From: Tubulanus polymorphus
Taxonomy: Eukaryota; Animalia; Nemertea
Assembly: GCF_964204645.1 (NCBI RefSeq)
Contig: NC_134025.1
Coordinates: 5,464,871 to 5,528,870, forward strand
Reading direction: 5' to 3'
Length of the DNA: 64,000 nt
The notes under the pieces are model-generated. The model ran no database searches. It worked only from the letters and a program-made list of their open reading frames with translations, and was not told the origin of the DNA. Positions 28,462 to 55,179 of this stretch are shown here, in pieces. Numbering within the stretch: the first letter of the stretch is position 1; each line of letters begins with the position of its first letter. Position numbers and translations under genes: made by a program.

Positions 28462-28559
28462 TTTTAGGTTGATCGCTCGCTGGAATTTGTGTACTCTACC
28501 AAGTGTTGAAGTAAACTATGCCTGTGGAAGGTTGACCCAAGGTAAATACTTCAATACCA

Positions 28560-28760
28560 ACACTGTCAAACCACGCCTTGTGTCGTTAATACATGCAAAT
28601 GTTTTATCGTCGCATTATCAATGGCTTTGATTGGACAGAATCGTCGCCGCCCTTTTGTTAAGTTCTTCTATTCTGGTGTGTAAGCGGCTTTGCTATTGGC
28701 TTGACAAGGCGACATGGAATGGTTGACAGCGCGCGGCGGTATCGCCGGCGTAGCTGATGT
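28560..28760 (-). promoter_or_regulatory. Candidate FoxA proximal promoter.
   Basis: A GC-rich patch 100-300 bp 5' of the FoxA ORF carries two CCAAT boxes on the minus strand (plus-strand gattgg at 28629-28634 and attggc at 28695-28700) and the CpG-rich stretch gcgcgcggcggtatcgccggcg. Confidence 0.3.
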
Positions 28761-31700: not shown

Positions 31701-34672
31701 ACTTACTTATAATACCAATTTTTATCGCAAAAAGTATGAAGGTATCAATACAACTTGTAATGGTGCATTTTTAGAAATATTTGAATGACTCGGGTGTCTT
31801 AAACCGGATGAAACATTTTTAGTTCGCAGTTCCTTGGCAAATATCTGCGTGTCTTTTCCGTACTCATTTAATTTGTCGCACATATACAATCGTCCTTAAG
31901 CAGCCCAAAGACGTTGCAGAGGTCAATTCATAAATTTTTTCAAATCGAAAATAAGATGTTATTCTCAATTCTTGAAATTCTTATTCCCATAAGCAATACG
32001 CGAATCTTGGGACAGCATTGTGACATATGTCTATCGGTCGTTTCTACAGCGATGTACTTTCATACGGATATTTTGACATGTTTCTATATTGATTATACCT
32101 TATTATACCTTATCAATCATCAAGAATATTTCATTTATACTGAATGCTGATTCATCGACTCTAAAACGAAACCTGAATTAAGTACATACAATGACAGAAA
32201 AAACCCTGGTTGGTGTAAACAACCGGGGAGGCTGGCTGTGACTGTTAGCGGTAAAATCCCCTCAGTAAAAATGATAAGTTAATTAATTCAATTTATTCTG
32301 AAAATGTATTGTATTCTAAGAATTTATTTAAGACTTAAGTGCAACAAATGAGTCCATTGCACAATTCCAATATATTGCAGTATTATTGCAAAAACATTTG
32401 GGAAATATCTTGCTTTGAAATGTTCTCGAAAAATTGCCAAGTGGGGATTTTTGGGATTTGTAGATTAACCTACTTTGACTTTGGGGAATTCAACCCAGAG
32501 GATTTTCACCTAGATTCTAGGATGAACGGCGTATATCACTGTTCAATTGTCGGAATAAAACATCATGCACTGTTTGCGATAAGTTGTTACACGGTAAATA
32601 TTTTTCCAATGGATCAGTGGATAAAACATATTTGACCAGGTCTTGATCATATTTACTCGATTTTTGACACCGCCATGTTCGCGATGGTTTTACACGGCTC
32701 GTATCAACATAAAATACAACATCGTTGACAATAGAAATACCATATCCGATGGGCACTATTAGAGGCGATAAAGCGGATTTTCTACACTTAATGTCTGGAT
32801 TAAAAAATTGCATTTCAGAAAAATTTAGATTGATCCCCACAATATCCACAGCTGCGCCTTTCAGTCACTGCCGATTAACAGGCGCGCAAATCGCGACAAT
32901 AACAATGATCGCGCAGATTCCACCGAAAGGTGGCCATGGTAATTAACCATATTAATACCGATAATAACTTCAGCCGCATTCTTTGGATTTCTTTAGCTCG
33001 ACTGAAGAACACCTCCACCGGCAAACAAACGTTAGAAACCTTCAGAAATTCCTGGCCATTATCCGACAAGAATAGACCGGAAAGTTTAGACTCCTTAATT
33101 CAGAAAAGGATCCCAATGCTCGATCCTCGAAACATTTTGTAGGAGGCTATATTGTAGTTTAGGAACAAGACTTGGTATTCCTACCCCACAGTTTGAGAAC
33201 AGATTTTTGTAAGCGATGAAGTGGCCTCGAGGGTACTCAACGCAGCATGAAATGAACAACAAGATGGTTCGACTTTTGATAGATTTTATACGTGCGATTT
33301 CCCGTGACAATGCTTCACAACACTCTCACTTAAGATAATGAAAGTCGATTGTGCACCCTTACTTACTCTATCTGAAAATTGGCTCGGTCGGCTGCCTATG
33401 TTATCCATACATATAGTTCTAACGAAAAGAGTGTATTTATTCAACAAAATGCCGGCATTCTTATTTTAGACTGGCCCAAAACTGGAAATTCATCCATACT
33501 CACTGAATTCTCATGAGTGATCTGGCTCAACCCAATGACGTTATCATCGATCGCTATAAACTATAAACGACAAATCCATTCTCTAATCTACGAAATGGTA
33601 GAAAAAATAACTGATACATAACTAATAATGTGATCGGGTTGAATTTGTATTATTTTGTAGCCGTTTCAATGAATCTTCATAGCAGCTTACAAAACGACTG
33701 TATGACATTACAACGTACACGAATACGGGCGACGATAGAATACAATATTGTCATTACAAACCAAAGTATCACTGGTCGAATATTATTCTAGGTTTATCTT
33801 ATGATCATTTTCGAATGTTTTCTCTCCACCTTTTCATTGTCTTATAAGATACTCGCGTGTTTAACCGCTGGTTCGTGTAGACCGCGTGAACTTCACGATC
33901 CATCGCAGGCGCGCATGTGTTACGAGTAAAGGTCGATAACCGCAGTGGAAAAATGCTGTTTTCCACAAATTCATTCTTAAAATAGTCTTACCTTTTTATC
34001 ATCGACCATCTTATTGTATTAATCCTCACATATATAGTCTCGTTACATACGAATTCAAGTTCTTACATTCAACATTCAAAATGTCATTGTCAAACCGAGG
34101 AAAATACATTATATCTATTTCAAAGTAACATTAACTCTTTGCATGCAACTTTGTTAAATTTTCAGATCTCAGAATTCTCTGATTTGTTCTTAACTACTTT
34201 CAGTACATGATAATAAAGCAATTATGAGGGCTTTATACTAACAGGGACATAGTAAAACTATATATTTTCTGTTTCAGAACAACCTATTCTATCTAAAAAT
34301 CTATACTTTTCAAAAATTTTGCTGTCTGGGGTAAGATGAGGGACCCCAGAAGGCCCCACCCAGGGTGTGGTTGTACTAAATAAGCCTGTTTTTTTTACAG
34401 TAATTAGCCAAGGAAAAAAAGAGATCAGAGAGAAACTGATTATAATTCTCCATTTTATCCAAGCTAGGGCCGTTGTTGATCACTGGGAAAAGTTTTGGGG
34501 TCCTTGGGTCATTATGATGGTCAATATCTCAAGGTCAACGAAAGGTCAAAAAATCAAATTTTAAAAAATTATTTTTTAATTTCAGTCAATATGTCTTCTC
34601 TAGTATCCTCTATTGCTGAGTATCCTCTCATGAGCTGAAATAAAGTATTCCTCGAGGTGTCTCCGAATATTA

Positions 34673-34733
34673 GGGGGTCTTTGTGACCCCCTAAATTCCC
34701 AGAGGGGTCACCCTAAATTCCCAGAGGGGTCAA
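34673..34733. repeat. Inverted repeat gggggtc-tttgt-gaccccc followed by two tandem copies of ctaaattcccagaggggtca; part of a repeat-like element (about 34320-34760).
   Basis: Read directly from the sequence. GGGGTCA/TGACCCC units recur at 34342 (gggacccc), 34496 (ggggtcc), 34507 (gggtca), 34674, 34704 and 34725. Confidence 0.6.
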
Positions 34734-37700
34734 AATGACAGAAAATCTACAAAAAGTCAGTGTAATTTGAATGACATACTTCACTGATGCGACTACGCCG
34801 GCCAAAAATAAACACTGATAAGAGTTAGAATGATACAGTGTATGTAGTGCTACTGTGAAAATCTATCTATGTCAGGTATGCGCCGTGTCTAAACGCTCTG
34901 TCATAGGCCTATGTGCTGTATACACAGCTGGTGCTTGTATGGATATAGGAACAGCTTCAGTGTGTTGCCAAGGCCTCCGCGTGATAACAGACATAACATG
35001 AAGTACAGAGCTCGATGTATATTCCATCTATAGGGCCATAGCAACACTACCCGTTATATGATGTAACGTCACGCACATTTCAAAGGTTTGACGACCGTTA
35101 CTTCCGGTCACCCCCAGCATGCATAGAGTTAATTCTGGAGCAAAAATATCAGTTAGAACCGGGGGTTGGTGTGCGGGTTCTGTGTAGCCGGGGTTGATGG
35201 GCACCGACATTTCATATGAATTACAAAAACGTCGCGTCGTTTTGTACTGCGTAGACATATTGCTTCATTGATAAAAACTGTAAGCGGAACTTATCTTGAA
35301 GTTGGTCTGGTTTTTAAGAAATGCGTCCCCAGAGGTTCACTGTGACGGAGCTGTCTATGCTATTTATACTGACGAATGAATATATTTTCACACAGGGCCT
35401 CTCAAATAACTCGCCTTTTAACCTCGATATATCTGAGTTATAATGTATTGTCTCGTATTTCTCCCAGTATCATATTAAAAGGTGAACCACCTCAAACGTA
35501 CAGTTACAGACAAATATTCCACCATCTAGTGAATATAGTTTCTATTTGGGCGCTGCAAAAGATGGAAATTATCGTACATAGTGGGTGATATTTTGACACA
35601 TCTACGGTAGGTTCAGTTTTCATAAGTAAGGTCTTTTGACATCAGTTTTAGCTTCATTGTTTTCAAGCAGTTTCAAATTGCATTCAAAAAGCGCAATACT
35701 TATATGGGTAAATAAATCGTATTGTGCGCTAGTCGTTTCGTCAAATAAATGCAGATAAGAGCACGTGTGCTTTGCGACGGATGGGGTATCATTTAGAATA
35801 AGGCTAATTTTCACAGGAATCGGTTTTCACGTATAACGTTGACCCTGGTTAGTAGCATGATGGATGAGTACGCTTTATAGCATAGATCAGAACTCTTCCG
35901 AAAATATCCGTAAAAAATCTTCACGAATTCTGCCACTCGCATGCACCGTCCTCTTAGATCAGAAATCTAAGAAAAGAATCTCACGGAATTCTCCGGGAAA
36001 TTCTGTAATGTCTAATATAACAAAAGTAGAAATTATATAATTGTATTATCTCTAAATTTCATTATTCAACCTATGGACGTATATTTTCACATTTCTTAGA
36101 ACACTCCACTTGCAAATGCTGGCTTTAAGGTAAGATGCTTAAATGAACCGTACATAGCGCGACCGGGTGCGTTTGCCTCCCGAAATCGTGGAAATATCCC
36201 TTATTGCGAATATCATTGTTATATCCAATAGAATTGCCCTTTCCGGGTTTCTCTGCCCCCTCCCCCAAGAAATTAAAATGCTAGGTACTGATTGCTTTTC
36301 TGATCGTAAAAAACAACCGTAAGATATCTTCCACTTATAAGATCTCATCGTATACACACAATGAATTGTAATAAATTGTAGATCACATCGTGGTTCACAG
36401 TGATATCGATTGTTGCTTGGATTTGAAAGTAAACGGAATTTCTTTACTTATACAGTGTAGGTTATACGTACAAACCAAATTTAAGAACACGACTGTGGTA
36501 TTTGTTTCGTATACTTTATTCGAACACGCATGTATTCTGATTTGCGTGAATCCCGAGAGATGGCGAAGTAGTTGGAGTTAGATAAAATGTTCGCATTATT
36601 TTATGGCGTTCATTTATGGCATGGTGTATGTGAATCTCAAGAGATGTCGAAGCTGTCGGATAACGGCGATCAGGCAAGTTAAAACAGTAGTCGTCCCTGG
36701 ATCCGCCCCTGCGTTCTAAATTCCTGGATCACCGATTGGTGAAGCATAACTCCCCTGGCTGTTCAGCCGCTAATACTACGTGCATGTGAAATTATTGATT
36801 TTTTCCAGAAAAACCACGTGTTACGTTTACGGCAAACACCTAATTGGTGAAGCTTATTGCCGACCGGGTCTAAGGTACCTCCCAAAAAAGATGAATTTAA
36901 ATGCATTCTTATCATATACCCACATCGATAGAATAGTTTGGACGGAAAAAATTGGGAATCCCTTAGATCCGCACCTGATATTTGATTATGGTTTTACTCG
37001 TAGGCCCTAATGAAAATTACACCACTACCATTATTCTCTCAATAAATGGGAGTATGAAAACTTCGAAAAAGAAAAGGCGAAATAAATTTATCTCTTTATA
37101 TTTTGCCCTTTGGTACGTGTTATATCGTTACACCTAACAAGCAGATATAATTTCACGAGACTATAATAAGATCCAATAACATGTAATACAAAAATATTCT
37201 TATTTTTCTAGCGCTCTTTCGTAGAATTTACCTATCATCATTACAGAGCGTATTTTGCACGCTCGATCGATTTTAAGCGAACAAAAACTGAAACACATCT
37301 CAAATCAGACGACATGTCATTTAGTGCTGCTGTATATACTCGATTCGCGCGCTTCTCTCCTGACGGCTTGAAAATTTCGTTTTGCAAAGCGTGGCTAGCA
37401 CACTTGATGGGACCTTTGTGGGGAAACATTCGCCCAGGGCGTGAATCGTTTACGATGCAAACTATAGTAGATGAGGTAGGCCTTGTTGATGTTGTACGGT
37501 TCGCAAACACGTAATTTATATATATACTATTATGTATATGATCTAGATGTCATTTGCGCGCAAAGGGCAGACTTTCTTTTGTAAAGTGTGATATTTTCGT
37601 AAATGTTTTTTACATGAAAAAAAGGAATATTCATTTGTCTCCCAAAATTTCAAGAGTTCAAGCCTTGGGTATCTCGTACTTGTTTTAGAACTAAGTTGAA

Positions 37701-40416
37701 CAAAGTTAAAAGTAGACAATTTGGTATACAAAATCACTCTAATTAAAAGATTCATTTTTGCAAAGTAGATGATAGTTAATAGACATCTGTTAACCACTAT
37801 CGAATGAGCAAGCAAGGCTGGCGTTCAAGAAGTTATCAAAGCTGACAACATTTGTCACGTCTCCGACTGGTAGTAACTTATCTTGTTTTTTTTGCAAATA
37901 ATTATTGCACCTAATGCGATAGGTTTGTCAATCATTGTTTCCCTGTCATTATTTGAGAATTACAAATTCCGATATTGCTGGGAATCCAAAATACAATGAT
38001 ATAAACATGTTTAGGATTTCTCTTGGCCTTCCAAAGGTCGACTAAAATGGTCATATGACCGATGTGCTTAAACCCATCGACTTAGTCATCTATATTCGGG
38101 ACCGTTCGTCTCTAAGCAGGCCCGTGCGTGAGAAATATGCGGGTCGGTTCGTTTGTTATTTGGTTGGAATAGAATGGGGGTCTGGGGGCTCCTGGTAAAA
38201 GTTTGAAAATCTGATGCTCATATGACCTCTGAGCGATTTCCGTTGTCAAGGTCTGAATAAATGAACAAAGATCTTATGCATGTTGTAGTAGTTGAAAGTG
38301 TAATACGTTTGAGCTTGATAATATTTTCAAATCAAAAACGAATTTTTCGTTCGATCCCCCACGCTACAGGCCTACCCAGCAAATTTAAAAAAAAACCAAA
38401 CAAACACTGACACGGCATTTCATTTTACAGACGGAACTGACGTATATTTATAAGACTTGTTCATTATCATGAATGTTTGAGGATGCCGGGTTTCATTATC
38501 ACATGAACATGTGGTCATTATGCCCATGGTTGAACTTCGGTTAACCTGACTCGAACCTGACACAGCCAACACGAGCTGTTTGCGCGTCACCACAAAAGGA
38601 ATGATGGGTCGTGACCACTAGTCAGGACAATAGCATTACAACACGTACCGACGTGCAGAGCGACGACGTTTGTCAAATACATTTAAAATTAAACTCCAAT
38701 TGCCTTTTAAAATGATAAACCAGAAAAGGCACAAAGGGCGCGGTCAAGTCGCGAGGACATTATAAAACTAGAATAAGTAATGCGGACTTTAAGATATCGA
38801 ATGATTTTGAGGATAGCAAAAATTATTCTAATCCAATTTTGCTCAATTTTGAAGTTTATGACTAGATAAGATTGGACTCATGTAATGCAATAATTGTTTT
38901 TAACAGTTGGTACTGGCATCATACTAGGTGTACATGCCAAAACCAGCTCAAAATTAGGTTGAAGGCGCCTCCCGAGACGATTGCAGGTGTCAAGACAGTA
39001 TGTTATGAAACAAGACAGCAACGTGTAAACCAACATTTATAAGGGGCCGATTTTGTTGTGGCTTAGTTCTACGGGGGTTTGCTTCATTAGATTCAGAATC
39101 TACTTATTGTCATTACGGAACAATTAAAGCAACTCAAACGCCGCATTTACGACGGGTGACAGATGGACAGACCTCGGGGCTTCATCTTCGAGTATCGCAC
39201 GACTTTTCTCCTTGAGTTACAACGCACGATCAATCAATACATTATTATTCTGAATGTTTCACAGGACTGGACAACGACGCATCACAAAAAGCGCATCCGC
39301 GTCCATCAACACAATGTGACTACCTGTGTAGTTCGTGTCCGTTATACTTCACCTCATATGATATTGAACATTCGCATGGGCTGCACTTGAAAAACATCAA
39401 TGGGAAATAACAACAATTAGAAAATGAATTTCCAAGCATTACAAATAAACATTTTTCTTAAAAAGAAGATATTCTAAGCTGATGAGGTGAAATGATAAAA
39501 AACATCGGGATTTTTACGCATTTTCTGCTCAGTTACACCATGGACTCTTGTGAGTCCATGTCCATGGGTCATTTTGGTTTGTAATGTAATCGAATTTATT
39601 TTATATAATAAATGCCTATTTCTATTATGTCTATATTTTTAACGAACAATTCAACCACGCTTTGTTATGTACTTGAAATGCGGCTTTTTTCACAATGTTT
39701 CGATGTATACGTCACAGTATGATATTTCAAACGGGATAGTTCGATCTGCAATCATAATGGCTTTATAATGCCCTTGTCTTGGTTTTGGACGTTCGCTGGT
39801 TTTCCCTGGGGGTTCAAAATGATCCCTAGTTAAGGTCAGAGTGTGTGTCATGACCACCTCTAATCGTCATTATCGTCTCATTGGGGCGTCTTCGTAACAC
39901 GTGCCGCATTCACGACTGTTCAAACGCATTGATGTAATTCGCCGCAACGAATCTTAATCGAAGAGTAAACTCGATTACGTTCTCGAAATACAACTCTTTG
40001 AAATGAGAGATAATTGTCGTCCTGAACACGCGCTTGGCCCCGAATGAACCCAGACCAGCTATACGCGATCCCGTTTCAATGAAATTCAGTTTAAATATCG
40101 TATTTCCGTTACTGACTTGGATTAATATTTCATCGCATCATTTGTGACATATCGTGGCTCGACGACAAATTTCTATTAAACTTGGGCGTTAAGACGTGCC
40201 GGTGTGTATAAACGTAAGATCACAACGAGACAATATACGACATTCAACTCATTCGATTAGAAATGATAGTAAAACGAAACATCGATTCGCTTAATTTCCT
40301 ATTCTCATCGAGCTATTGTCATAGATTGAATCCTTGCTTAGGAAGCTGATTAGGGTCAAACACTCGGCACGTCTTCAGCAACTTTTCACCTTTCTCGAAT
40401 CGTGATGTTTGCTGGT

Positions 40417-40460
40417 GTATATATATACTATATGTATGTATGTATGTATGTATATATATT
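40417..40460. repeat. Microsatellite (TATG)n flanked by (TA)n.
   Basis: The sequence reads tatatatatactatatgtatgtatgtatgtatgtatatatatt. Confidence 0.9.
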
Positions 40461-41099
40461 GACGTGGGAATTTTTAATGGTCGGAGCCAGGTTCATCGGT
40501 TATGCGAGAAAGGTTGAATGTGGGCATCATTGACAAAGACGAAGTAAAGCCCAATAAACCGCCCCACTAAAGAAATGGCCTGGAGAATTTCCTTCTTCTT
40601 CCGAACAACCATGACTCAAAAATCACGGAAGATCAATTGTCCCTCTGTCGTTCCACACAAGCGAAATAACCACTGCATGTATGATAAATGTAATAATACT
40701 ACCGGATTCATGAAACCGCTAGTGATGAAAAGAAATACAAAATGAAAAAAAAATGTCTAAGTCTTTAAAGAATTTCGGCGTAAGAGCGGCGTTGGTTTGG
40801 ATTACGTGATGACCCGAGAAAAAGAAACGAATCATTATTATTTTGTTCAAATTTCCGAATGCAAACAAAAGAAATTTGCCATTTCGCGGGTTTCGAGTCT
40901 CATGATGAATTTTAGATATATATGTACATATGTATAATTTATCACACTATGGGGACTTCGCTGGTGATGCCCAGCTTGCTGGCCAGTTCAGCTGACCAAT
41001 TGCATTCGAGACGCAACGCGAGAGGAGGGAGAGAGTGAGGAAATACGTCGAGGCGGTGAGACGTACTTTAAGCAGAGGCAGCACGCGCTCGTTCGTCCG

Positions 41100-41170
41100 A
41101 GCCGAGGGGTATAAAAAATGGGAAACGTCTAAAACGCATCATGGAAATAATGATTAAGCCACAGGTAAGG
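41100..41170 (+). promoter_or_regulatory. Candidate promoter and short 5' exon, possibly an alternative first exon of the downstream nuclear receptor gene.
   Basis: A CCAAT motif sits at about 41008 (gctgaccaattgc) inside a GC-rich island (40960-41280). TATAAAAA is at 41110-41117. ATG at 41141 is followed by 8 codons (MEIMIKPQ) and the consensus donor cag|GTAAGG at 41165. The phase-0 end is compatible with the phase-0 acceptor of the DBD exon at 45878. Confidence 0.35.
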
Positions 41171-44100
41171 AATGACCAAATAATTTCTAGGAAAGCCACG
41201 AAACACGAGACAGGAAGTGCGGCAGCGACTTCCGTGCAACAGTCAGCGGTATCACGACAGCGATAGATAATGAATATATGCCCATTAATCTGAAGTTATT
41301 ACGATATCATGCAGTAGATATTCATTCCATCAACAATCTGAATGCTGACCGATTGGAAATTAATTTTTTCTCGATTATCATGAGCACTTGAAAATTAAAC
41401 ATCACAGGTCATCTTCGGATTTTCGTTTGGATTCATTTCAGCGGAAAACTTCTGGGGAAATTGGGGAGGTTCCTGGCAAATAATACACAAAATACATTTA
41501 CGTACTTTTTATCATATATAATATGAATTTGCAATTCATTTCATAATTCTTTGAATTTATATGCATATTGAATTAGATGTTAAGTACGAGATTATGATAG
41601 CAGCAATGTGCTACGCAGGATCGTAAATCTGAGATGTTAATGTTTAACTGTGAAAAGCTTCGAAATTTGTTGCTGATTGGAAATTGTTGAGAGATCTGCT
41701 ACGATAGAAAATTGATTTTTCTTTTGTCGGATTTTATTGCCTGACCAAATGCATTGTGTTTGTAGTAGATTTTACGCATCAAATCTCTATGTTTACCGCA
41801 GATGTTAATAATACGATTAACAACTCGCATGGCATGTTGAATATCAGAGCAAACCTTACAAAATCGTATAAAATATTTTTGTTCATGTTTTAGTTAACCA
41901 TGCTGTCCATTCATACGATTTGTTATGATTTTGTGTAATAATTTTGCGGTATTTGGTCACCTATTTCCTAGTCTAGACCATGGACTGCCCTTTGTAGCCT
42001 GAATAGTACGCGTGAACTTTTTCTGAGCTGACCTGAATTTAGCGAGTAGTTCAAGGCATCTCTAAACAACCTCCAGAACTAAATGTGTAAATTGTGTCAA
42101 CTGCGAATGTCCCAGTAACTAAGAGACCATGAGGGTCAAAGGCTAACGGTGGTCTTGGTATCTTAGTTATAAGGTGATGAAAGCTTACTATTTCTAACAC
42201 TATTAGTTGATTTAGTTCTGAGGGTTTGGAGTAAGTGGAAGTTGCAAATTACTAGTGAATTTTTGCCCTTTGAGAAGTGCATATCGTTGCTTTGTGTGTT
42301 TTGTTTCTTTTCCATTTCTTAGTTCTTGATTAGTTTTGAAATGTGGAATTAACTATGGCAAGTGTCGCATTTATCTTTGATGGAAATTGAAGAAGTGAAA
42401 ATGAAATTGAAGCTATCGCGTTTTAGAAACAGTTGTTTCTTATTCCAAATCAGATTCGTTATTTTCCAATCCATCGCTTGTTGTTTATGGTCTTGAAGCG
42501 CTTCCACCATTCATGAATGACCATATTATTGTTTAATGGTGATTAATATTTACAACTGAAGGTCGGTTCGTGCCAGCCAGATTGGTCGATATTACTACCG
42601 GAAAGTTTGGATTGGAACTTTACAACCTACTATCTATAACGTCATGATAAATCTGCAAATATTCATTTATATACTCGGTGCCTGGGATTGCATCTGAATT
42701 ATTGACATATTTACGACATTTAATATTTCGTAGTAAATTCAGTCGGTCTCAACCAAGAATCAGTTTAAGTTATCGTCAGGTATGAGGCGGATATAGACGA
42801 TATATATCTGTATTCGAATTGAAAAAATGTCTGAAAAAATATGCAAAAATTTTACGCATTAGATCCGCTTTATAAAGATTTGAATTACAAAATGGTAGCT
42901 AACAGTTATCAGATATACACCGACCATGAATTTTGTTCTTTCTCTTTCACTTACAGTGCAGCCGAACTTAAACATTCAGCCTTATCTCCAGATGACAAAC
43001 CCAATAAAAGCTCGTTCCACTATAAGCCACCCGGCTTCGTTTTTCAACCTATATACTAAAAATTGTTTGGATAAACGTCCGGTTGCCGATCGCCGCGAGA
43101 TTTCGGCCGCCGATCATTTTACCGCCTGAACAATAGATTTTAGAATTTGAATTCCATCGTCGTTATCGGAGCTAGTAACCCTTGAGGTTAGCTAAAGGGC
43201 AATATTAACCGAATGGTCAGTGCAAATATTCTTCGGATTCGAAGTAATCAGAATTTCAACGCTTTAAGATTTTAGTACGAAAAGTATGACTTTGTTGTTA
43301 GTATATATATAGCATTGATAGAATTCATATATTCGAAACAGTGAAATGAATATTCGAATACACTTTTTATTTCTACGGAAGAAAAAATAGCTCAGTTGCA
43401 AATTGCGTCTCGATATTTCGAAACAATCTTTTCTTTTGTAACTGTCGCATCATCCGACGATTCCCCCATTTAAAACCGAGAAAGCAATCGATGCATTGTG
43501 CCTCAGCCTCAAGCGATCACAGTTACCCAGTTTTCTTTGGCTGCGCATGCTCATTCGAACCAACGGGCGCATGTACTTTTTTCTGGCCATTCAGAAAAAA
43601 AATACGCTCGTTGTTAGCTTAGGTCTCAAGTAATGTTCGATCGACTTAGCCCGAATGGAGTTCGAGAATTTTCAGGTAAGACCGTATGAAAAAGCGGTTG
43701 ATAGATTTGTGTATTTATTTGAGAGCTGTTTGCACTTTATATTCCAACTGACCCCTCGGTGACTGTAGCTTGTATACGTATAATGTATTACAGATAGCAT
43801 ATTTATGTTAATCAAGTTCCACACATCTAATTCACTCCGCCCTTCACTACTATCGATTGTAGACCTCTGGTTGTAGAACTGCTACAACCGCATTTTACGT
43901 TCTTAGTGAACGACGCGATGATGACGAGGACGATACCGTTTGCCAAAATATCAACGACGAATATTTCGCTATATCATGTTTTCTGATCTGATCTCTACGG
44001 TTCATTCACTCAGAGATGTTCTTCATAAGGGTGACCTGTACTTTTTGAGATCTAAAAACTTGGCCTATTTTCTACTCACAAGTTTTTGGTCACTGACTAA

Positions 44101-45877
44101 CCAATGGTAGAGTGTTTTTGGTCGTAAAAATTTACCGACACGTTTCGGCATGGTTTCGCTGATCAAAACGGTTCGGAAGGATTTCATTATTTGAAGATTG
44201 TACGGTAAAAAAACAAGTTTGCGTTGCGGAAAAAGTCGATGTCATGCATACTCAGACGCCAAACGGGTTGCGCGATCACGGGTTTTCAGGACGTAACAAA
44301 AATGTTATTGAGGTGAGATATTTTTCGGATTCAAGTGACTTATTTTTGATTTTATCTTCTTTGGTATTAAGACTTATTAATACAGTTTTACGGCGAGACA
44401 TTCTGTTATGATTTTATCTATCACTATCAGTCTTCGACAACTACGGATTTTCACGTGAAATATGGTCGGTTTTAGATAAGCATCTAATATTGAATTGAAA
44501 TAATCACAGATGTGTTTATTAAATATCTGGCTTATTTCGTTAATGTGAGAATGAATGTCTGCCATTTTGTACTCCTTGCTGAGATATCGAACCAGTGACT
44601 CACAAAAAGTACACGGGAACCATTCATTATTTTGTACTTTGTAGTTGTCATGGCTTCCTCACTTTTTATAGATTGCTCTGCTTTTAAATTATTCGGACCT
44701 TTGCTCAAAATAAATTTGATTTCGCGAAATTCCATTTGAGTAGTACCATCAGATTCGTTAATCATCATTCATAATATCATGGAGGTGGGAGAGACCTTCC
44801 TGACTATGTTATTACCTTTTAACACTTCGATATAAATGCAAGGTTTAATCAAGTTTTAACGAGGAAACTGTTATTCATCTCTGTATAGATTTACACCTGT
44901 TATTATTTCAGACTAACCGATATCGACACAATTTACTCAATTATTTTTGGCAGGCTAAAATGTGTGAAAATACTGAATAAAATCGTTACTATTTTCTGGC
45001 AATACTTTTCACCTAAAACTATGATAATGTTTTTGATGAATTCTGTGTGTAATAATTATTTTATTCTAAATAGGTGTAAAGTGCAAAAGAGCCGGAATTG
45101 AAAAAATATTTAATCAAATTATTTGAATTTATCCACAGACTAATGTCATACCTTTCCAATCTTGAAAATTTCTTACTTTAGAGAAATATGGCTTTTAGGT
45201 CAAATGCCAAAGAGAAATTGAATGTAGTTTAGATAAGGGTAAAATATGAACCTGAGTTTGGTATATGTAATGGATATAACATGTTTAAAGATCTGAATTA
45301 TCATTCGTCATCGGATCAACACATTCAGTAAAAATAGTGTCTTATTCGTAGACGTGCTTTTGGATTGATAAATTGTAAAAAATGAATGAATTTACTTTGA
45401 TATCTGGAACAGATTGCGCAAATAGATTATTTTTGATGTTTTGACTTATTTTAATTCTTATGTTTTTATGTTGAATACAAATGAGCTACGTAAACGTCTA
45501 CACGTATTTATAAACCTTTGATGCTACGCTAACTTTGATATCTCAAACTGAAATCATATCATTTACACCAGTTTCAATTGCAAATCCAATAAAAGTACCC
45601 CGTGGCCATTAACTCAAAAAGATATATTTCATGAAATGATGAATTCGCCCCATGTGCTTGATTACTATCTTTAGATATGTTATTATGTCTTCAAGAAGAA
45701 AAAAATACTTTGAATTTGAAATGACACAAAACATTCACTGCGCATTGTGTGCAATTAGATAGAAAAGTTTTAGAGCCCATTATTTATCTGAATGAAACGA
45801 TTCGTTGTTCAGAGTAATCCAGTGTTACTGTATCTCCAGGTGATGAGTCATATTTGTCTTATGTTTGATATTTGCAG

Positions 45878-45982
45878 GAGCGCGACTGTATGAAAGCCCA
45901 GCTGCAGCATGTTCTTTGTCGAGTCTGCGGAGATAGAGCGTCCGGACTGCACTACGGAGTTTTTGCCTGCGAAGGCTGCAAG
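45878..45982 (+). CDS. Nuclear receptor NR1 subfamily (E75/Rev-erb/PPAR-like), exon encoding DBD zinc finger I.
   Basis: The exon encodes '[35 protein letters not shown]', the nuclear-receptor P-box finger. It ends at aag|GTAAAA (donor at 45983). It starts after the acceptor tttgcag at 45871-45877; the in-frame ATG at 45890 is a possible start if no coding exon lies upstream. Confidence 0.85.
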
Positions 45983-48900
45983 GTAAAAAGCTGTTGTATC
46001 CTCTCTTCTGCATCAGTCGTCCTTTTTCAAATGATTCGATATTAGCAAGAATTTTTCAATATCTTGATGATATTTTGTCGATCGTTTTAGGCATTTGATG
46101 TCGAAATTATTTGTCGACTAATAACCACGCTATTATCGGCATAAGCCGGGGATTCACGAAAATGTTGAAACTTTCTCTGGATACATTCCATTCCGGAATC
46201 TGTTGATTAGTGGGTTTTTTATAAATACAAATCAAAATCTCAGTGAGGGCATATCAATTTATCTTCGACCAAATTTGCGGAAGAATTTACATAATTCAAT
46301 CTGTATAGCCCGGTCAATTTCTGCGACTTTGATTGGAAGGGATTTAATTTCGAGAAGAGTAAGGTTTCGGGTTTATTATCCCAACTGTAATTACTACATA
46401 ATGTCATTATCTATTTCGTTACATTAAAGGGATCAATGGACATGGCCATAAATTCTCTGTGTCAGTCTGTCCGCTCAAATCTATTGATTATAGGCAAATG
46501 ATTCTAATCAGAGGATCGAATCAAGAGATTGACTCATCATGAGCTCAATAAGAATTCGGATTTCATCAAGAAATCTGCAAGTACCTCGGAAATTCCCACC
46601 AGTATATAGAAGAATCCACGCGTCCTGAAGCAATTCCCATAAGGAGGTCATCTAGACAGTGACCGCGCTGTAGGTTGTATTTGGTTACGCCGACACCTCG
46701 TGACATCTTAATGACTTTCGCAAGTTTTCATCGTTCATCGCGTGGAACAGCAGTTGCAACCAGTGGACCACAAAGATCTTGTTAATTAAATATTTGTTAA
46801 AATTGATGATACCAAATACACCAAGTTCATCTTGATAGCTATAGCTATTTCGCTGTGTTTAGATTAGATTATGCTTATGGAATGATGAAATGCATAAATT
46901 GACACATATGAACGGTATATATTCGAAAGCGGAATGGAAACTAATGAAATGTTACGATTTGCGCTCGGTGGAAACCTTTCGACCTTATAACATCGATATC
47001 AAATGAACCTTCGGGCTGAGCCTAATTAGAATTTTAGACGACTTCCTCTGCATTCGTAATAATCTACATATATAATATGATAGTCAGTCGGGTTGGCTAA
47101 TGCAGTCAGTTAATTATCCGTGCTAACAAGTTTTCACCGGAAAATTGATTATTACATCTGTCTAACATGAGGTTTACCATTTTACCGATTTTCGAAAGAG
47201 ATCTGAATAGACGGTTATTACTCGACCTGCATCGCCGTTAACCGAAAATAAGTTAACATTCCCGTGTAACAGCCTATAGCCGAAAAATCGTATACCCTTT
47301 CGTCTGATATAAATTCTAGTTTTATTACCATCACCGGTGAAAAACGTCTGCGAATAATTTCGGTGCAGACGAAACGCGCGAATATGAGTGAAGAAAAGAT
47401 TTCTAAAAGTACACAACTACAAAAGATTCGTTTGGGCAATATTATCCTCAACGTTGTCTGACACGGACGGTGTGTTGCGCGCGCTGAGATGAATACCCGT
47501 GTGTTCCAGAAAAATAATGCTAACCACTTTGTGGGCTTTAGTTTTGATTGTCCGACAACTATAGCCCACTGAGTCTGATAGAACGTAGCTGAATAGGGAA
47601 AGGTCTTGTTTCTGTGCCATTTAGACGGTGTTCTTCGTGGTTTCTAACTGGTGCTTAATAACCGACTTTCTTCCGTCTATCACCTTTATCTCGCAAATAT
47701 TTGTGTCTTGAAGTTGTGGTCAATTTGGGATGTCAATAGATGAGCAAGTTGAGTTGGCCCGCCCCTACCTCCGAGGTTGACCACTTTCTTACAATGTTCT
47801 CATTCATAATCGCAAAATTATTCAATGCAGCCGCAACAAAAGAAGTTATCTATGTAACAACGTTTGTTCTTGATGAATTATCAATACTGCAATGAGCTGG
47901 TGGTACTCGAATAAAATGGCGGACTCTGTGCTGCAAATTCAATGAAGTGTGTTCTCGACGTAAATATGCAAATGACCTTAGTAAGGTCAGCTGTAGCCGG
48001 CACTATCGCCTTGAGGGCAAACTTGTACTCGAGGATGGCCTCAGAATTGTATAAATATATACCCTTGTCTCAACTAGATTCGATTGACTAGTTGAGTCGT
48101 GCACCGTCGTCCCAATTCCCCCTCAAGGGTATTACATTTCGATGAGCAGAATGGCGTAAATCATACGGACGGAACAATTGAATTACAAGGCAGATTTCAT
48201 GAGATCTAAGTAGAAAATCATCACCAAAAAGATCAATATACCCCCGATATACAAATCTGGCTTCTCGGTCATTAAAGTTCTGAAAATAGCTTTAATACAA
48301 ATACATGACTCAGCTCAGCGAGGATAATAAGTACGAAGTTGGTTTCTTCCAGTTCGGAGGAAATGAAAATTTGGTACACGAAAACCGAGTAAATATACAC
48401 AGCGGATCAAATCCGTCGGACCAATTCACGTTATTAAGTTGTTAATACGAGGGAAATATGATTTCTGTTTGGAATCTGGGCAATAATCCGATTGTATAAA
48501 CTTATTGGTCAATACGTGTCTATCTATGTAATATAGATTCATCTCGGTTGACAGGCCGGACATTCCTGATATATCGGCGCATTGTAATCATACAATTTGA
48601 AAATCCTAATTCAATATACTATGTTGTATCAAATAAACAGAAGCATCGACGTTCATTTGTAAATAGCGAAATACCTTTTCTTCTTTTCTTCCCATTCTCT
48701 TGAAAATCTACGATTGATGTCAACATATTTTTCTTTCTAACCTCCTTGACTTGGATTCATTTTGTTTGCGTTAGGTTCCTTGTTAGCAACTACAGCAGCT
48801 GGACTCTATATCAGATATCTGTTTAACTCCGTTTAATGTTTGTTGAAATCTTTTTATGACACTATTATATGAAATATATAACATAATTCGGATATCGTTA

Positions 48901-49023
48901 ATGTCAGACACATTTTCACAGTCCCAAGAGGTCCGATTTTAGCGGAGTCTACCGTACATGTTTGAGATATTTTTGATGGATTTTATAGAAATCTTAATTC
49001 ATAATCATAATTTTCTATTTCAG

Positions 49024-49168
49024 GGATTTTTTCGACGTACGTTGAAACATAATTTGCAATACAAAAAATGTCAGAATCCGAAAGGATGTCTGATAATGAG
49101 GATCAACCGGAACCGTTGCCAGTACTGTCGCATGAAGAAGTGTTTTTCTGTGGGCATGTCTCACGATG
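49024..49168 (+). CDS. Same nuclear receptor gene, exon encoding DBD zinc finger II.
   Basis: Encodes 'GFFRRTLKHNLQYKKCQNPKGCLIMRINRNRCQYCRMKKCFSVGMSHD', a D-box finger with the RINRNRCQYCR motif of NR1D/E. Acceptor is ttttctatttcag; donor is GTAAGT at 49169. It joins the previous exon in phase 0. Confidence 0.9.
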
Positions 49169-49263
49169 GTAAGTCCGTAAGAAATATATAGATATATGTA
49201 TTTTTATTTTATTTCATGCGTATGGAGTTAATAAGTTGGTTTATTGGATCACTTTGTTTACAG

Positions 49264-49469
49264 CTGTGCGATTGGGTCGGTGTCCGAAAAAAGATCGACC
49301 GAGCTCGTCATTCATGGTACATCTTCCAAAAACGGCTAACGGAACAGTGGACACTAAACGTCAAATACAAGCCGAACAAATGATTCTGAATATTCACAAA
49401 GCGCTGCGTGAGCTGCCGACCACCGGGATTAAACTAAACGGCATTTACGATGGGGAGGGTTATCAGAAG
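49264..49469 (+). CDS. Same nuclear receptor gene, exon encoding the T/A-box and hinge.
   Basis: Encodes '(D)AVRLGRCPKKDRPSS...GIYDGEGYQK'. The split codon g|ct gives GMSHD-AVRLGR, matching the conserved GMSRDAVRFGR of E75/Rev-erb. Acceptor is tttgtttacag; donor is aag|GTAACA. Confidence 0.85.
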
Positions 49470-49578
49470 GTAACAACATTCATATTTCTGCATTTCAATT
49501 AAATGTGTGAAGATGTTCTGTTGTTTTGCAAAAAAATCTTCTCCGAAATAAACAGAAACGAATTATTTTCCATTTCAG

Positions 49579-49951
49579 ACTCAAGAAATGCCAGACGGTA
49601 CAAGATACATAGCGCATATAGTCAAGATATTTGATTATGTAAATCGTGTAACGGCCTTCGCGCGGGGCATCCCTCAATTTTCTTCCTTGAGCATTTCCGA
49701 CCAACATACACTATTAAAAAACGGCGCGATGGAATTATCGGCGCTGATCGATTTCAACGAATTTCGCAACGCGAAAGAAGAGGGTTTTAAACCAAGCGTA
49801 ATATACAGTTTGACCAGGGAAGTCTGGAACAATCAGGAAGTGGTCCACGGACTATGCGAGGAATACTACAACTTCGCGACAAAACTTGACAAACTAAAAC
49901 TTACCGATGTCGAAACTGCACTGTATATGGCTCTAGTGCTATTTTGTTCTG
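49579..49951 (+). CDS. Same nuclear receptor gene, first exon of the ligand-binding domain.
   Basis: Encodes 'TQEMPDGTRYIAHIVKIFDYVNRVTAFARGIPQFSSLSISDQHTLLKNGAMELSAL...ALYMALVLFCS', whose helix 3-5 signature 'F..IP.F..L...DQ..LLK.G..E' is nuclear-receptor. Acceptor is ttccatttcag; donor is tct g|GTAGGT in phase 1. Confidence 0.85.
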
Positions 49952-50153
49952 GTAGGTAATTTAGTTCAGGCCATTTTGTTAGATTATGATACATATGTGT
50001 TAATTGAAAAATGACTATATAAATCTCCTCGAAGATGTAAGAGATACTGATTTGATCTTCATATGAATAAAAGGAATGGGTTTCGAATGCAGTATGCTCA
50101 AAAGATTCAATAATTATTCGCTGTTAACTAACCTAGCGATATGTATGATTTCA

Positions 50154-51055
50154 GATCGCGAGAGTTTAGAAGATTGCAAAGTGGTAGAAGATATCGAAAT
50201 GGCGTTAGCCATGGCTCTGAAAACCCAATTCTCCATTAACCACGCCGAATCACCGAACGCTTTTGCCACCGTACTTTATCTAATTGTTGATCTCAGGGCA
50301 TTGTCAGTGAAATACTGGGAACTTATACTAAAGGCGCCAGTCAATGCAGCATCCGATGATGCTCATATAGAACTAGGACTATCAGAAACCGACGAGCCAA
50401 ATAAAGCAACACCTGTCAACGCAAATGATCAATTGGGCAGGGAGTTGCCGGCATCTGACGGTCACAATAGTGATGTTAAAATCGAAGCAGTTTCTTATCC
50501 CATAAACGATCACCAACAACGGCGAAGTCCAGGTCAGAATGGCTGTTCGCCCAGATCCTCCGTGTCGGACGATACCTCATCGGTCGGGAATAGCAGCTTG
50601 AAAAATCTGGAAGACTACTATCAGAAACATTCGACGACGAAACGAAATAGCATCAACGAAGAGACATGTAGTAAAAGATCGAGCGTGTCGTCGAGCAGGT
50701 CTTCTCCCGAACAGATAGACCGGCCATTCGATTATAGCTTGAAACAAAGGTCACCGGACAACAACTCGCACCTCGTCGTGCCGCAAATGCCGCCTGTCTT
50801 AACCGTTGCACGATCGATGGAACATCAACGCCCTTTGGACTTTACAGCGCAACAACATCGCCATTCGAGCCTGGCGCTTTCACCCGCGCAACAAGAACTG
50901 CTTTACAAAACGAGACTTTTAGCTGAACACAACCATTACATGCAACTTCACTACGCATTCAACGGTATTCAATCGCATTTTCCAATCTATCCCACGGAAT
51001 GTGTTCCCGGTCTCCGTCGGTTTTTCCCGCAAAACAGGGGCCAACAAAATAGATG
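50154..51055 (+). CDS. Same nuclear receptor gene, last exon (LBD helices 7-11 plus a long Ser-rich C-terminal tail).
   Basis: Phase-1 junction G+AT gives 'LVLFCS-D-RESLEDCKVVEDIEMALAMALK...FATVLYLIVDLRALSVKYWELILK', the NR helix 7-10 pattern 'LVLFSPDR'. No AF-2 (helix 12) motif is visible, as in Rev-erb. The coding sequence ends at a TGA. By my count the ORF spans 50075-51055; the ORF track lists it as 50076-51056. Confidence 0.85.
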
Positions 51056-54000
51056 ATTTTTCATTGACGTAGGATTTTTGAAATTTTCAGAATATATTGT
51101 CCCGGTGTACGACTCCATGTGTTACTCTATTAACATGCGTATATAATGCTTTTTTGCTTAGAAGAAAATCGACCCTTGAATTTGTATACTAGTCATTTAA
51201 GAGTTCCACAAGTAAGCCAGCATCATTAGCAAAGTTTATCCATATATAGTCAACCGCTATAGGCGCCACCGGTGAATTATTGAATGAATTGTTATACAGA
51301 TATATTTATTATTATCAAATTATATAGACACATACGTAAGATTATTTATATGTTGTGAATTATGATATGGAGATTTTGTGAGTTCGTTGTTTTTGACAGA
51401 AATTATGAAATGGTCCCGGTATCCAGTATGCCAAACAGTACATCCAACTGATTCATGTGTGCCTCTTTTCATGATATGGGATGTTGTTGAAAAGATAGTG
51501 ATGTGGTGTTATAGCTTGCTATTGTATAAAATATCTTGATTATTATCTAAAATAGAGTGATTTATGTAAGAAGTATATTTGTAAATATTATGTGATTGTA
51601 TGATGAATTGTGAGGTTCTTTAACCATTCAAAAAATCTAATTTTGTTGACCTATACACGCCAACTGTGCTGGAATTTCATACATTGTATCACAATCGATT
51701 TTAGATATTTTGTAGTCTGAACATCCGATCTGTTGAGGGCTTTAGGGCACAATTAGATTTGATTTTTGAGAGGCATTGAACAAATATGGGCATTAAAATC
51801 ATCATTGGGAAAGTGGGTGCTACAATAGGAAGAGTAATTATGATTGCTTCTTCAATAAAATCACGGATTTCGAAATGTACTTTAATCTGTGAGAATTTAA
51901 TCATGTTAATCGTCAAAAATTCTTTTTCTCTTCCCTACACATTCATTTGAGTGTAAACAGCTCAATGTGCTATAGTAACGATATCGTACAACCTGGGACG
52001 GTGCAATAAAAGCCAAACCCTGCCAAAAAGCTACGGTGGTCATAAACACACAAATAGGCTTTGCTGAAAATCGAGTCTTCGCGCAACTCGTCGTCATTGA
52101 TAAACCATTTGTGTTATTTGCATTTGCAAGGTTTTCTACTTTTAGGGAAGCAGCGAAATTTCTTTTTCACAATATAGAATTGCATCATATTCTCCAAAAA
52201 AGAGGCTCCAGCTCAAACATTAGAACACAAATGTTCGGGTTTCCATCATCGTGAATTCATGCTGTTGCAGTCATTCTAAAAATGCTTATGAAGCTATTAT
52301 CTTTGTCTCCGATATTTTCTACATGGTTTGTCAGTTTTTTTTTGTGCCATAATTAGTTCTTTTGCCATAAGCGTTTTATTCATTCATTTCTTATACAATA
52401 TTTTATTGTGCTTTTTAATCGAATGGAATGTATTCTGCATTCATACTAGACATATACCCGAAGAAAAAATGATATGATATGGTTTTAATTTAGATCGTAG
52501 TTGGTAAAATGTCGAATTTTAAGACTTCCTTCTAGTCAGACGTCTTCATTTTGAACGATCAGCTCGAGGTTGTTCCCGTGTTAGGGATTTAAATGGCCAG
52601 TGTTGCACGTCGACACATGCAGTCGATTATCAAAAAATTGGCTTATCAAGCCCATTGTCCACGACAGCGTTTAATCGATCCTTTTTTGCCCTGGGTGAAT
52701 TGCAAAAACCATATTGTCGTTGAGACGAAAAATACATTTTATATTGTCAATAATAATGTGACGTTCGATAGATTGGTCACTTTCATGATAGACCCGGGGT
52801 CAAGTCATCCCCAGAGATATCTGATTCTTATTGTAACCCTCTACAGTGGAACTGATACCAAACGTGTATCTGAGATACCCAGCATCAGTCACGTTGTGCC
52901 AGTAATCCTTAATCAATGGGAATGTTCTTTTTAGATCTTCGGCGCACGAATGGTTATTGTAAGAGGTATTGGAACAATATTTGTCGACATGATTATATAT
53001 GAAGGCCTATGATATTGATATATTATTGAAATAAAGATATCATTATGAATGAATTATAAATTTGCGAATTCGTTCTTTTATATTTTTACGTACATATATT
53101 CAGGTGGAGTAGATATCACTGCTTCCAAAGCGAAATGTTGAAATGGATGGAGATATCCATTCACTTACACATCTTTGTGATTAGCTGGATTTTAGAGAAA
53201 ATCATCTTGACAAAATACTCCAAGGCTGGAAGGACCAACATGGACCATAGATGCGGGCTTACTTCGTCGAGTAAAAAAGTGATATTCAGAATTTTGCCTA
53301 TTTCGCTGTGGAAGAAACATTGGTCATTTGGTAATTGGTTTTCTAATGATTTATATATTAAGAGTGGCTTCATTTGTCAGTTTTAGTTTTCGTTGTTTAT
53401 CCCGATATACAAACACTACTGTGCTGTAATTATAACCCACCAAATCTCTTCAAAGGATATGCGGAACACATCAATGATATGATATACATCAATGATACAC
53501 ATTTATTTCTATTTCCGAATTGATTCGCAATTTGATGCTATTACATAGGTGACAAAAAGCTTTTCAATATTTTCCTCTCGTTAGTCAATAAATCTATTCC
53601 AGCTGACAATTTCTCCCAAAAGCTGGTATCAATTTTCTGATTTAACACCATCAGAATATATCGAAAAAGTTTGGACGAATTAAATGAATATTGAAAAAAA
53701 TCTAAACCTTTTACTGAGTCCATATGATAGTTGTTGGTTGTAAACTAACTGTGACGCGGATGGTAATATTTCTATCGAATCTGAATCAGTACAAATGTCT
53801 CCTTAGCTAGGATGTGAATGGAGTGAGTATATTTTCACGGAAGACAATCGAGTAAATTGCAACGTATCGACATTAAGGGACCATTGGCGGTTAAGTAAGA
53901 GATCCCGCTGTCATCGGCGCGGTTATTAAACTAATTACGGCGAAGAGACCCGACCATGTGGTGCCGGGGCGAGCAAAGTGCGATGGAGGAAAAGTAGAAT

Positions 54001-54220: not shown

Positions 54221-54807
54221 TTAGAGATAAAAGTTGAATTTTGTAGCGAGGAACATTGGCATTTTTGTGTAGACGAAAAATCTCCCCTGGCCGTAGTATC
54301 TCACCTGCATTTTATCATTTAAATCGAAATGTGCCGTATTCGACAAACATTTTTGTTCACATTGTATTATGTCAACAAGATCCAAGCCGGTCGTAACCGC
54401 AGAGACATCTTTAGCACAACCCAATGTTATATGCCCTTTGCTTCCAAAACCGGAGGTCGGATGGAAATTGGGTGGATACGAAGTCGAGCCCATTCCGAGG
54501 TTTATGTCGTTACAACAGCCTTGGTAGCAAGGTGCAGAGCGGTCTTTACAATTACCGTCAGTATCATTCTGCGCCCAGAGAGGTAACTGTCGCTCGGTTA
54601 AACGAACTCGTGCGCCGAGCGTTCGTGGTGTCAGTAGAAAACCAACGACTTCGATGACATAGAAAGACCCTAAAGCTTCGCGAACTGCGCGTCTTTGCTC
54701 GTAAGTGGAACATTCGGGTACCGTTCCGCGTCCACAGAACATGGCCGTGACATGAAGAGGCATACTGTACTTTGTCATGTCGGAGTAGTAAGTGGACAGA
54801 TCAAAAC
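54221..54807 (-). CDS. CNPase-like 2',3'-cyclic-nucleotide 3'-phosphodiesterase (2H phosphoesterase superfamily), terminal coding exon.
   Basis: Two H-x-T motifs are present ('MPLHVTAMFCG' and 'KGHITLGCAKDVSAVTTGLDLVDII'). 'LLTPRTLGARVRLTERQLPLW' closely parallels human CNP '[22 protein letters not shown]' and '[22 protein letters not shown]' as I recall them. Acceptor is catttcatatacttttag at 54808-54809. A stop follows, with AATAAATAA about 15 nt downstream on the minus strand. Confidence 0.85.
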
Positions 54808-55042: not shown

Positions 55043-55179
55043 CTGAAAAAAGGCAAGGAGTGTGTTTTAAAAAGGTTTCATGAAATTATAAATGACTTTC
55101 AATGAAAACTACTTTTTAATAAATGAATTATCAATTGTGCCTGAAAATCTTCTGTTTGTTGAGATTTACCTTCAATTAC

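Follow-up and report, generated by a model that had tools for sequence, protein, structure and literature searches.

Molluscan receptors have been assigned to the peroxisome proliferator-activated receptors (PPARs; NR1C) in several studies. Lottia protein 238472 was designated LgPPAR2 and placed in group NR1C, with two PPAR paralogues recognized in gastropods (Kaur et al. 2015, PMC4388693). The oyster receptor CgNR1C grouped with human PPARs with a posterior probability of 1 and a maximum likelihood bootstrap of 78 (Vogeler et al. 2014, PMC4070562), and its expression is high at gastrulation (PMC5041327). CgPPAR was later cloned as a six-exon gene encoding 499 amino acids (aa), with a D-box (ENPKG) unlike that of other PPARs; the protein lacks helices H2, H2' and H12 and may not be ligand-activated (Vogeler et al. 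2017, PMC5398557). The same study placed CgPPAR nearest LgPPAR1/BgPPAR1 and reported oysters to be without PPAR2 (PMC5398557). The gene described here, from the nemertean Tubulanus polymorphus, occupies positions 45878–51056 on the + strand of a 64,000-nucleotide window (assembly GCF_964204645.1, contig NC_134025.1, positions 5,464,871 to 5,528,870), to which all coordinates below refer. It is a further, deep-branching member of the family already present in the literature as the molluscan "PPAR" without helix 12. The favored interpretation, with a probability of roughly 0.65, is that its product is an orthologue of the CgPPAR/LgPPAR2 clade that would bind AGGTCA sites and serve as a repressor or competitor lacking activation function 2 (AF-2).

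Orthology and domain signatures

A sequence-only reading of this DNA had described a divergent NR1 receptor that could be either a lineage-specific member of the group or an unusual E75 orthologue, and had named BLASTP/HMMER comparison and an NR1 phylogeny as means of deciding. A search of 5.8 billion proteins returned no close relative of the query; the best matches reached 42–45% identity over the DNA-binding domain (DBD) and ligand-binding domain (LBD), were ∼360 aa in length and came from molluscs (Patella, Lottia LOTGIDRAFT_238472, the chiton Liolophura, Haliotis, and many bivalves) and the annelid Owenia. Echinoderm and hemichordate proteins of ∼350 aa followed, and E75s, Rev-erbs, and PPARs came thereafter at E ∼1e-50. 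An exhaustive HMMER scan across 1.84 billion cluster representatives gave the same picture, adding long-tailed gastropod proteins from Aplysia (1604 aa), Physella (1241 aa), and Plakobranchus (1832 aa). The database comparison led to the mollusc/annelid clade and not to E75. For phylogeny, 229 homologues were aligned, 311 well-occupied columns were kept, and neighbor-joining trees of 151 sequences were computed with 200 bootstraps; groupings were also scored on three column sets, namely all columns, the DBD with its C-terminal extension and helix 1, and LBD columns. The query fell inside a 32-member lophotrochozoan clade with 99–100% bootstrap, as its first branch, followed by Owenia and the chiton. 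A hidden Markov model (HMM) of this clade built without the query also gave the top score for both its DBD (141 bits; next 132) and its LBD (161 bits; next 110).

The clade is defined by GVF[AS]CEGCK, GFFRR[TS], a five-residue D-box (typically xNPKG), and GMSH[DE]AVRLGRCPKKD[RK]P, a combination present in essentially every lophotrochozoan member. In the query, the signature common to ∼30 clade members reads GMSHDAVRLGRCPKKDRP, and its RLGRCPKK extension is specific to the clade when compared with the named PPAR and NR1D extensions. Motifs that had been taken as peculiar to this gene (FACEGCK/FSCEGCK, GFFRRT, GMSH[DE], and AVRLGRCPKK) are accordingly near-invariant across ∼30 lophotrochozoan orthologues, and because they recur in this way the gene is not a lineage-specific NR1 member. 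Likeness to the molluscan CgPPAR/CgNR1C type (Crassostrea gigas KX591002; LgPPAR2; Biomphalaria "PPAR alpha-like," P0012) extends from the DBD signature to the helix 1 motif EQM[IV]L.IH.A and to an LBD that stops past helix 10/11 without helix 12; short clade members all end 10–15 residues beyond that helix. The molluscan type differs in having RISRNR where the query has RINRNR, and identity with the query is only 42–45%. Taken together, the query is very probably an orthologue of the clade in molluscs and Owenia that the mollusc literature calls PPAR.

Names within the clade are inconsistent. Its members appear in databases as E75-like, PPAR alpha-like, PPAR gamma-like, and NR1D2-like. By protein identifier the clade contains LgPPAR2, and Saccostrea has a helix 12-bearing paralogue (P0175), in conflict with the published placement of CgPPAR beside LgPPAR1/BgPPAR1 and the reported lack of PPAR2 in oysters. 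The clade member P0017 would be CgPPAR itself, as judged from its 499-aa length and ENPKG D-box rather than from its accession. Identity with the "NR1CDEF" group of Vogeler et al. 2014 was considered and set aside, since D-box and length fit CgPPAR/CgNR1C, a judgment made without comparison to the CgNR1CDEF sequence itself. Divergent bivalve paralogues also fall in the clade, namely P0226/P0410 (Sinonovacula "PPAR," 327 aa) and P0243 (Mya "E75-like," 315 aa). Their altered DBD motifs (GV[FL]CCEGCKGFFFR and GMSYE.VKMGR) suggest lineage-specific duplication with relaxed constraint.

The DBD of the query (Pfam zf-C4, aa 9–77, E = 4.3e-29) is intact, with two zinc fingers, a P-box of EGCKG, and a D-box, C-QNPKG-C, that has five residues between its cysteines. 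The zinc-binding residues C10, C13, C27, C30, C47, C53, C63, and C66 all occupy invariant alignment columns. GVFACEGCK, GFFRRT, LQYKKC, RINRNRCQYCR, GMSHD, and AVRLGRCPKKDRP were found in the receptor; every DBD motif listed by the sequence-only reading (RINRNRCQYCR, GFFRRT, L.Y.KC, GMSHD, FACEGCK, and AVRLGRCPKK) is present in the translation. With group HMMs built without the query, the DBD scored 141 bits against its own clade, 132 against an ambulacrarian clade, 125 against Rev-erb, 124 against E75, 116 against PPAR, and 112 against E78. Among solved structures in the PDB, the DBD likewise matched Rev-erb most strongly (128 bits; PPARgamma, 109). Among named groups, the DBD is nearest Rev-erb/E75 (NR1D) by profile score.

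The LBD (Pfam Hormone_recep, aa 168–322, E = 6.3e-12) carries the nuclear receptor signature FAxxIPxF...DQxxLLK. An AlphaFold2 model built with a 38-sequence family alignment (predicted local distance difference test [pLDDT] 77.8; predicted template modeling score [pTM] 0.78) showed a full LBD helix set with core pLDDT of ∼85–97, ending in a final helix at aa 308–331; from aa 338 onward pLDDT was below 50 and nothing beyond was ordered. When the model was compared with the PDB by Foldseek, intact PPARgamma ranked first (E = 1.3e-13), LXR and RAR LBDs were also found, and the best LBD-only matches were PPARgamma–NCoR2 complexes with inverse agonists. PPARgamma was also the best PDB sequence match, both overall and for the LBD. 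By profile, the LBD scored 161 bits against its own clade, 110 against PPAR, 90 against E78, 86 against E75, 84 against the ambulacrarian clade, and 80 against Rev-erb, making PPAR the nearest of the non-self profiles. The mixture of E75/Rev-erb and PPAR signatures that had been described for a divergent NR1 receptor thus holds, with a DBD nearest Rev-erb/E75 and an LBD nearest PPAR.

In a 16-sequence alignment, an AF-2 core (PLL[QR]E[IV][YF] or PLFSEIF) was present in vertebrate PPARs, amphioxus PPARG, the oyster and octopus PPAR delta-like proteins, and E78; none was found in the query, its clade, the echinoderm clade, or Rev-erb. Alignments and the AlphaFold2 model therefore bear out the earlier observation that no LLxEIY-type helix 12 follows helix 10/11. 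Scanning of the downstream + strand for a helix 12-like exon gave a single NLLFVEIY-like peptide at 55149, with ∼0.2 expected by chance. It was rejected as helix 12, being at chance level and lying beyond an opposite-strand CNPase gene.

Relation to PPARs, E75/Rev-erb and ambulacrarian receptors

Canonical PPARs formed a separate clade with 80% bootstrap, comprising chordate proteins (including tunicate and amphioxus), a hemichordate protein, and the mollusc "PPAR delta-like" paralogues of Saccostrea (P0175), Octopus (P0185), the scallop Mizuhopecten (P0201), and Pinctada (P0148). The Saccostrea, Octopus, and scallop proteins keep a PLLRE[IL] helix 12 and VRFGRMPK. By its sequence the query is not a canonical PPAR; molluscs hold this second, helix 12-bearing paralogue that groups with the chordate receptors. 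PPARs share GFFRRT and GMSH with the query and have the closest LBD by both profile and fold, but they possess an AF-2 of the form PLL[QR]E[IV][YF], [IV]RFGRMP, and GVH[AS]CEGCK, whereas the query and its clade have no helix 12 and carry VRLGRCPKK and GVF[AS]CEGCK. Vertebrate PPARs are also marked by a three-residue D-box, in contrast to the five-residue QNPKG of the query. D-box length alone does not decide against PPAR membership, because invertebrate helix 12-bearing PPAR-like proteins also have five residues. For the same reason, the sequence-only reading was correct as to the length of the D-box, but not in treating it as a mark of E75/Rev-erb.

The query could still be a functional PPAR, that is, a fatty acid- or xenobiotic-regulated partner of RXR on direct repeat 1 (DR1) elements that has simply lost helix 12, in which case the PPAR label of the mollusc literature would hold for function and not for name alone. 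Such a receptor would agree with PPARgamma being the best solved-structure relative in sequence and fold, with the 110-bit PPAR profile being the best non-self match of the LBD, with the shared GFFRRT and GMSH, and with placement of the clade beside PPARs, by neighbor joining here and with posterior probability 1 and bootstrap 78 in the published tree. The helix 12-bearing mollusc paralogue is, however, the better candidate for a canonical PPAR, and the lack of helix 12 throughout the clade would make classical ligand activation impossible. In addition, the DBD and its extension score nearer NR1D than PPAR, and the helix 11 histidine that contacts the ligand head group in PPARs aligns with a tyrosine in the query. 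A functional PPAR is therefore considered unlikely.

An unusual E75/Rev-erb (NR1D) orthologue, acting as a heme- or gas-regulated repressor, is far less probable still. This identity is suggested by the automatic NCBI name "E75-like" of several clade members, by Rev-erb being the top PDB match of the DBD, and by RINRNRCQYCR and the absent helix 12, which recall Rev-erb. Rev-erb/E75 also share a GRxPK-type extension with the query, but their LBD is distant (80–86 bits versus 110 for PPAR). Of 46 E75/Rev-erb sequences listed, nearly all carry AVRFGR[VI]PK[RK]EK, around three quarters have a cysteine ahead of helix 3 within [AV]CP[LM]N, and roughly 60% match a strict pattern for the LHSEK histidine of helix 11. 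In the query, the extension at the AVRFGR[VI]PK[RK]EK position is VRLGRCPKKDRP, no heme cysteine is present in the aligned segment, and a tyrosine (KYWEL) aligns with the heme histidine; molluscan clade members also have tyrosine here, and the echinoderm clade has asparagine. Whether the Cys/His heme ligands of E75/Rev-erb are conserved had been left as a question by the sequence-only reading; both axial ligands are absent in the alignment, and since they are, heme or gas sensing of the E75/Rev-erb type would not be expected. In Lottia, a true E75 (P0067, with AVRFGRVPK, the ACPLN cysteine, and the LHSEK histidine) is present in the genome alongside the orthologue of the query (P0002). Query and clade grouped with E75/Rev-erb in 0%, 0%, and 2% of bootstraps (all columns, DBD with extension and helix 1, and LBD, respectively). 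The phylogeny that had been proposed thus recovers a well-defined clade for the query but no affinity to NR1D, and the suggestion of an unusual E75 orthologue falls with it, as true E75s form a separate clade and the query is without AVRFGRVPK, ACPLN, and LHSEK. Membership in E78 (NR1E) was likewise rejected, as grouping with E78 occurred in 4–6% of bootstraps and the query has no E78-type helix 12 (PPLFSEIFD).

The remaining relatives are a clade of echinoderm and hemichordate proteins (P0033–P0041 and P0070), annotated "NR1D2-like," which carry GMSKDAVRLGRCPKKCK and are without helix 12 and without heme ligands. This ambulacrarian clade shares with the query an identical VRLGRCPKK, CLIMRINRNRCQYCR, and the helix 1 motif EQ[LM]IL.IH.A, but unlike the query has GVHACEGCK, GFFRRS, GMSKD, and KKCKP. 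The LBD of P0033 lies at distances of 0.92–1.01 from E75/Rev-erb versus 1.07–1.26 from the lophotrochozoan clade. The two clades grouped in 67% of bootstraps with DBD, extension, and helix 1 columns, 33% with all columns, and 15% with LBD columns. No canonical ambulacrarian E75/Rev-erb was found among the best 150 representatives, so the ambulacrarian clade may represent either the NR1D of ambulacrarians or their equivalent of the lophotrochozoan receptors. A tentative proposal, possible but doubtful, is that the two clades constitute one ancient bilaterian NR1 group, neither NR1C nor NR1D, that was lost in chordates and ecdysozoans. Such a group may be defined by VRLGRCPKK, an EQ[LM][IV]L.IH.A helix 1, the absence of helix 12, and the absence of heme ligands.

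Gene model, C-terminal tail and neighboring genes

In the genomic sequence, five + strand segments between 45878 and 51056 assemble into a 1731-nt in-frame open reading frame (ORF), each exon being preceded by AG and each internal exon followed by GT, with the frame preserved across all junctions. Exon A (45878..45982; acceptor AG at 45876–45877, donor GT at 45983) encodes the first zinc finger. Exon B (49024..49168), which ends in phase 1, encodes GFFRRTLKHNLQYKKC, the D-box (49069–49089), RINRNRCQYCR (49099–49131), and GMSHD. The C-terminal extension of the DBD (49168–49301) spans the following intron into exon C (49264..49469), which also encodes the hinge and the helix 1 motif EQMILNIHKA (49374–49403). 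Exon D (49579..49951) covers LBD helices 3 to 8, including the nuclear receptor signature FARGIPQFSSLSISDQHTLLK. The first part of exon E (50155..50330) encodes helices 9 to 10/11, with AFATVLYLIVDLRALSVKYWELIL as the final helix; the remainder (50343..51056) encodes a Ser-rich tail of 237 aa that is predicted to be disordered and has no helix 12. The sequence-only reading had given the gene five exons over 45878–51055; its exon chain stands, but its end is one base short, because the TGA stop occupies 51054–51056.

The first in-frame ATG lies at 45890 and would give a protein of 572 aa with a very short A/B region, 8 aa before the DBD if no 5' exon is missing. The acceptor of exon A is good (cag|GAG at 45878), and an in-frame genomic stop lies four codons upstream of it; translation must therefore begin either at ATG 45890 or within a further exon upstream of those recognized. 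Intron 1 (45983–49023) measures 3041 bp, and the other three introns measure 95, 109, and 203 bp. Genes of the E75 type have alternative first exons and promoters. The four introns of the receptor gene all interrupt the protein sequence exactly where those of Lottia KB200650.1 do (CEGCK|GFF; GMSH[DE]|xVRLGR; before the helix 3 exon; and LFC[SP]|DRE), which supports the exon chain. The Lottia gene has one additional 5' coding exon of 23 aa, a hint that the nemertean gene may possess a further 5' exon as well. A tblastn search of 28500–45877 with the N termini of orthologues, however, produced only chance-level matches.

The tail that follows the LBD is 13.5% Ser, in agreement with the roughly 240-residue Ser-rich tail noted earlier. 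Its GC content by codon position (0.54/0.42/0.47) resembles a pattern also seen in the LBD part of exon E (0.54/0.34/0.46), and intron 1 is flat (∼0.36–0.39). The other five frames contain 7–17 stops across the tail, and 237 stop-free codons at tail composition have a chance probability of 8e-8. From the codon-position pattern and the stop-free run, the tail looks coding. In the full-length AlphaFold2 model, aa 338–513 were disordered and a lone helix was predicted at aa 516–542 (50883–50963; PAQQELLYKTRLLAEHNHYMQLHYAFN) with pLDDT of ∼55. When the tail was compared by BLASTP with those of long orthologues, no match fell below E = 0.2; the lone helix showed no conservation there, and the long gastropod tails bear no sequence relationship to that of the query. 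By these comparisons the tail is lineage-specific and non-conserved.

Among the long-tailed relatives, the heterobranch orthologues P0121, P0122, P0123, and P0126 (Aplysia, Physella, Plakobranchus, and one Logan assembly; 1241–1832 aa) have in common the C-terminal motif RPRSxS...RLSRSNI[QHE][RK]LL, in which a basophilic kinase-like site is joined to an NR box-like IxxLL. In receptors without helix 12, this motif could serve for intramolecular contacts or for partner binding. A MAFFT match of the query tail to it (as RPRSxS...RLSRSNIxRLL) was rejected, because shuffling the tail gave an equal or higher score in 1644 of 2000 trials.

The exon structure and reading frame indicate that the locus is a real five-exon, protein-coding nuclear receptor gene. 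A pseudogene or chance chain of ORFs, for which one might cite the weak Kozak context of ATG 45890 (T at −3) and a gene model drawn from DNA with an unsettled 5' end, is scarcely credible given no frameshift or internal stop across the 1731 nt, canonical splice sites throughout, introns conserved with Lottia, retention of every clade-invariant residue including the eight zinc cysteines, and the coding periodicity and improbable stop-free run of the tail.

Two other genes were recognized in the window. A FoxA/HNF3 gene on the − strand (27064–28404) precedes the receptor gene by ∼17.5 kb, in the opposite orientation, and consists of one 446-aa ORF beginning at ATG 28404. It has the Pfam domains Forkhead_N, Forkhead, and HNF_C, contains Met/Ser/Gly-rich, His-rich, and poly-Gln stretches and a 14-residue repeat, and is best matched over its full length by the chiton Liolophura (55%). 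Synteny with FoxA was discarded as support for orthology, as the two genes lie on different contigs in Liolophura, Dreissena, and Mya, for which both are listed. Downstream, a − strand ORF at 54221–54778 encodes 185 aa of a 2',3'-cyclic-nucleotide 3'-phosphodiesterase (CNPase; Pfam E = 8.6e-26). The match covers profile positions 65–211 of 236, so this ORF is probably a single exon within a larger gene converging on the receptor gene.

Proposed function and significance

P-boxes of the EGCKG type specify AGGTCA half-sites. By analogy, the receptor would probably bind AGGTCA-type half-sites through its own EGCKG. Its conserved, basic, Rev-erb-like GRxP extension may read the 5' flank of the half-site, which would allow binding as a monomer or homodimer or on a direct repeat 2 (DR2)-type element; alternatively, the receptor might bind together with RXR. 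Because helix 12 is absent, no charge clamp between helices 3 and 12 could form, and classical ligand-dependent recruitment of LxxLL coactivators would not be expected. Repression or competition would follow from this, in a manner reminiscent of Rev-erb, which also lacks helix 12: the receptor would repress, either constitutively or under ligand modulation, or else compete for response elements. It would not sense heme or gas as E75/Rev-erb do. The repressor mechanism is considered evenly balanced.

Several observations weigh against an AF-2-less repressor or competitor of the CgPPAR/LgPPAR2 clade. A sister relation of the clade to PPARs was recovered in only 50–63% of bootstraps when all columns were used, in 43% for the LBD, and in 27% for the DBD with extension and helix 1, in trees that are all distance-based. 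At the charge clamp position of helix 3, the query has FAR rather than FAK. The long tail could carry an AF-2-independent activation function, for which the lone helix predicted at aa 516–542 would be a candidate. The exon chain is predicted from genomic DNA alone, and the true 5' end may lie in an unseen exon. DNA site, partner choice, and repressor activity are drawn from Rev-erb and general nuclear receptor principles, and the literature searched contained no functional assay of clade members, the published work consisting of in silico docking and expression.

If the gene is an AF-2-less member of the CgPPAR/LgPPAR2 clade as proposed, its practical value lies mainly in the correct annotation of clade members. 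In the ecotoxicology literature, organotins and PPAR drugs are discussed as possibly acting on mollusc "PPAR," and the gene usually cited is the one without helix 12; classical ligand activation would more plausibly belong to the helix 12-bearing second paralogue of molluscs. As a deep-branching member, the nemertean gene shows that the clade signature, including loss of helix 12, is old and under constraint. By itself it raises no new question, and the mildly interesting point is the grouping of lophotrochozoan and ambulacrarian receptors outside NR1C and NR1D. If that grouping were true, a dedicated AF-2-less repressor lineage would date to the bilaterian ancestor, hidden until now behind the names PPAR, E75-like, and Rev-erb-like.

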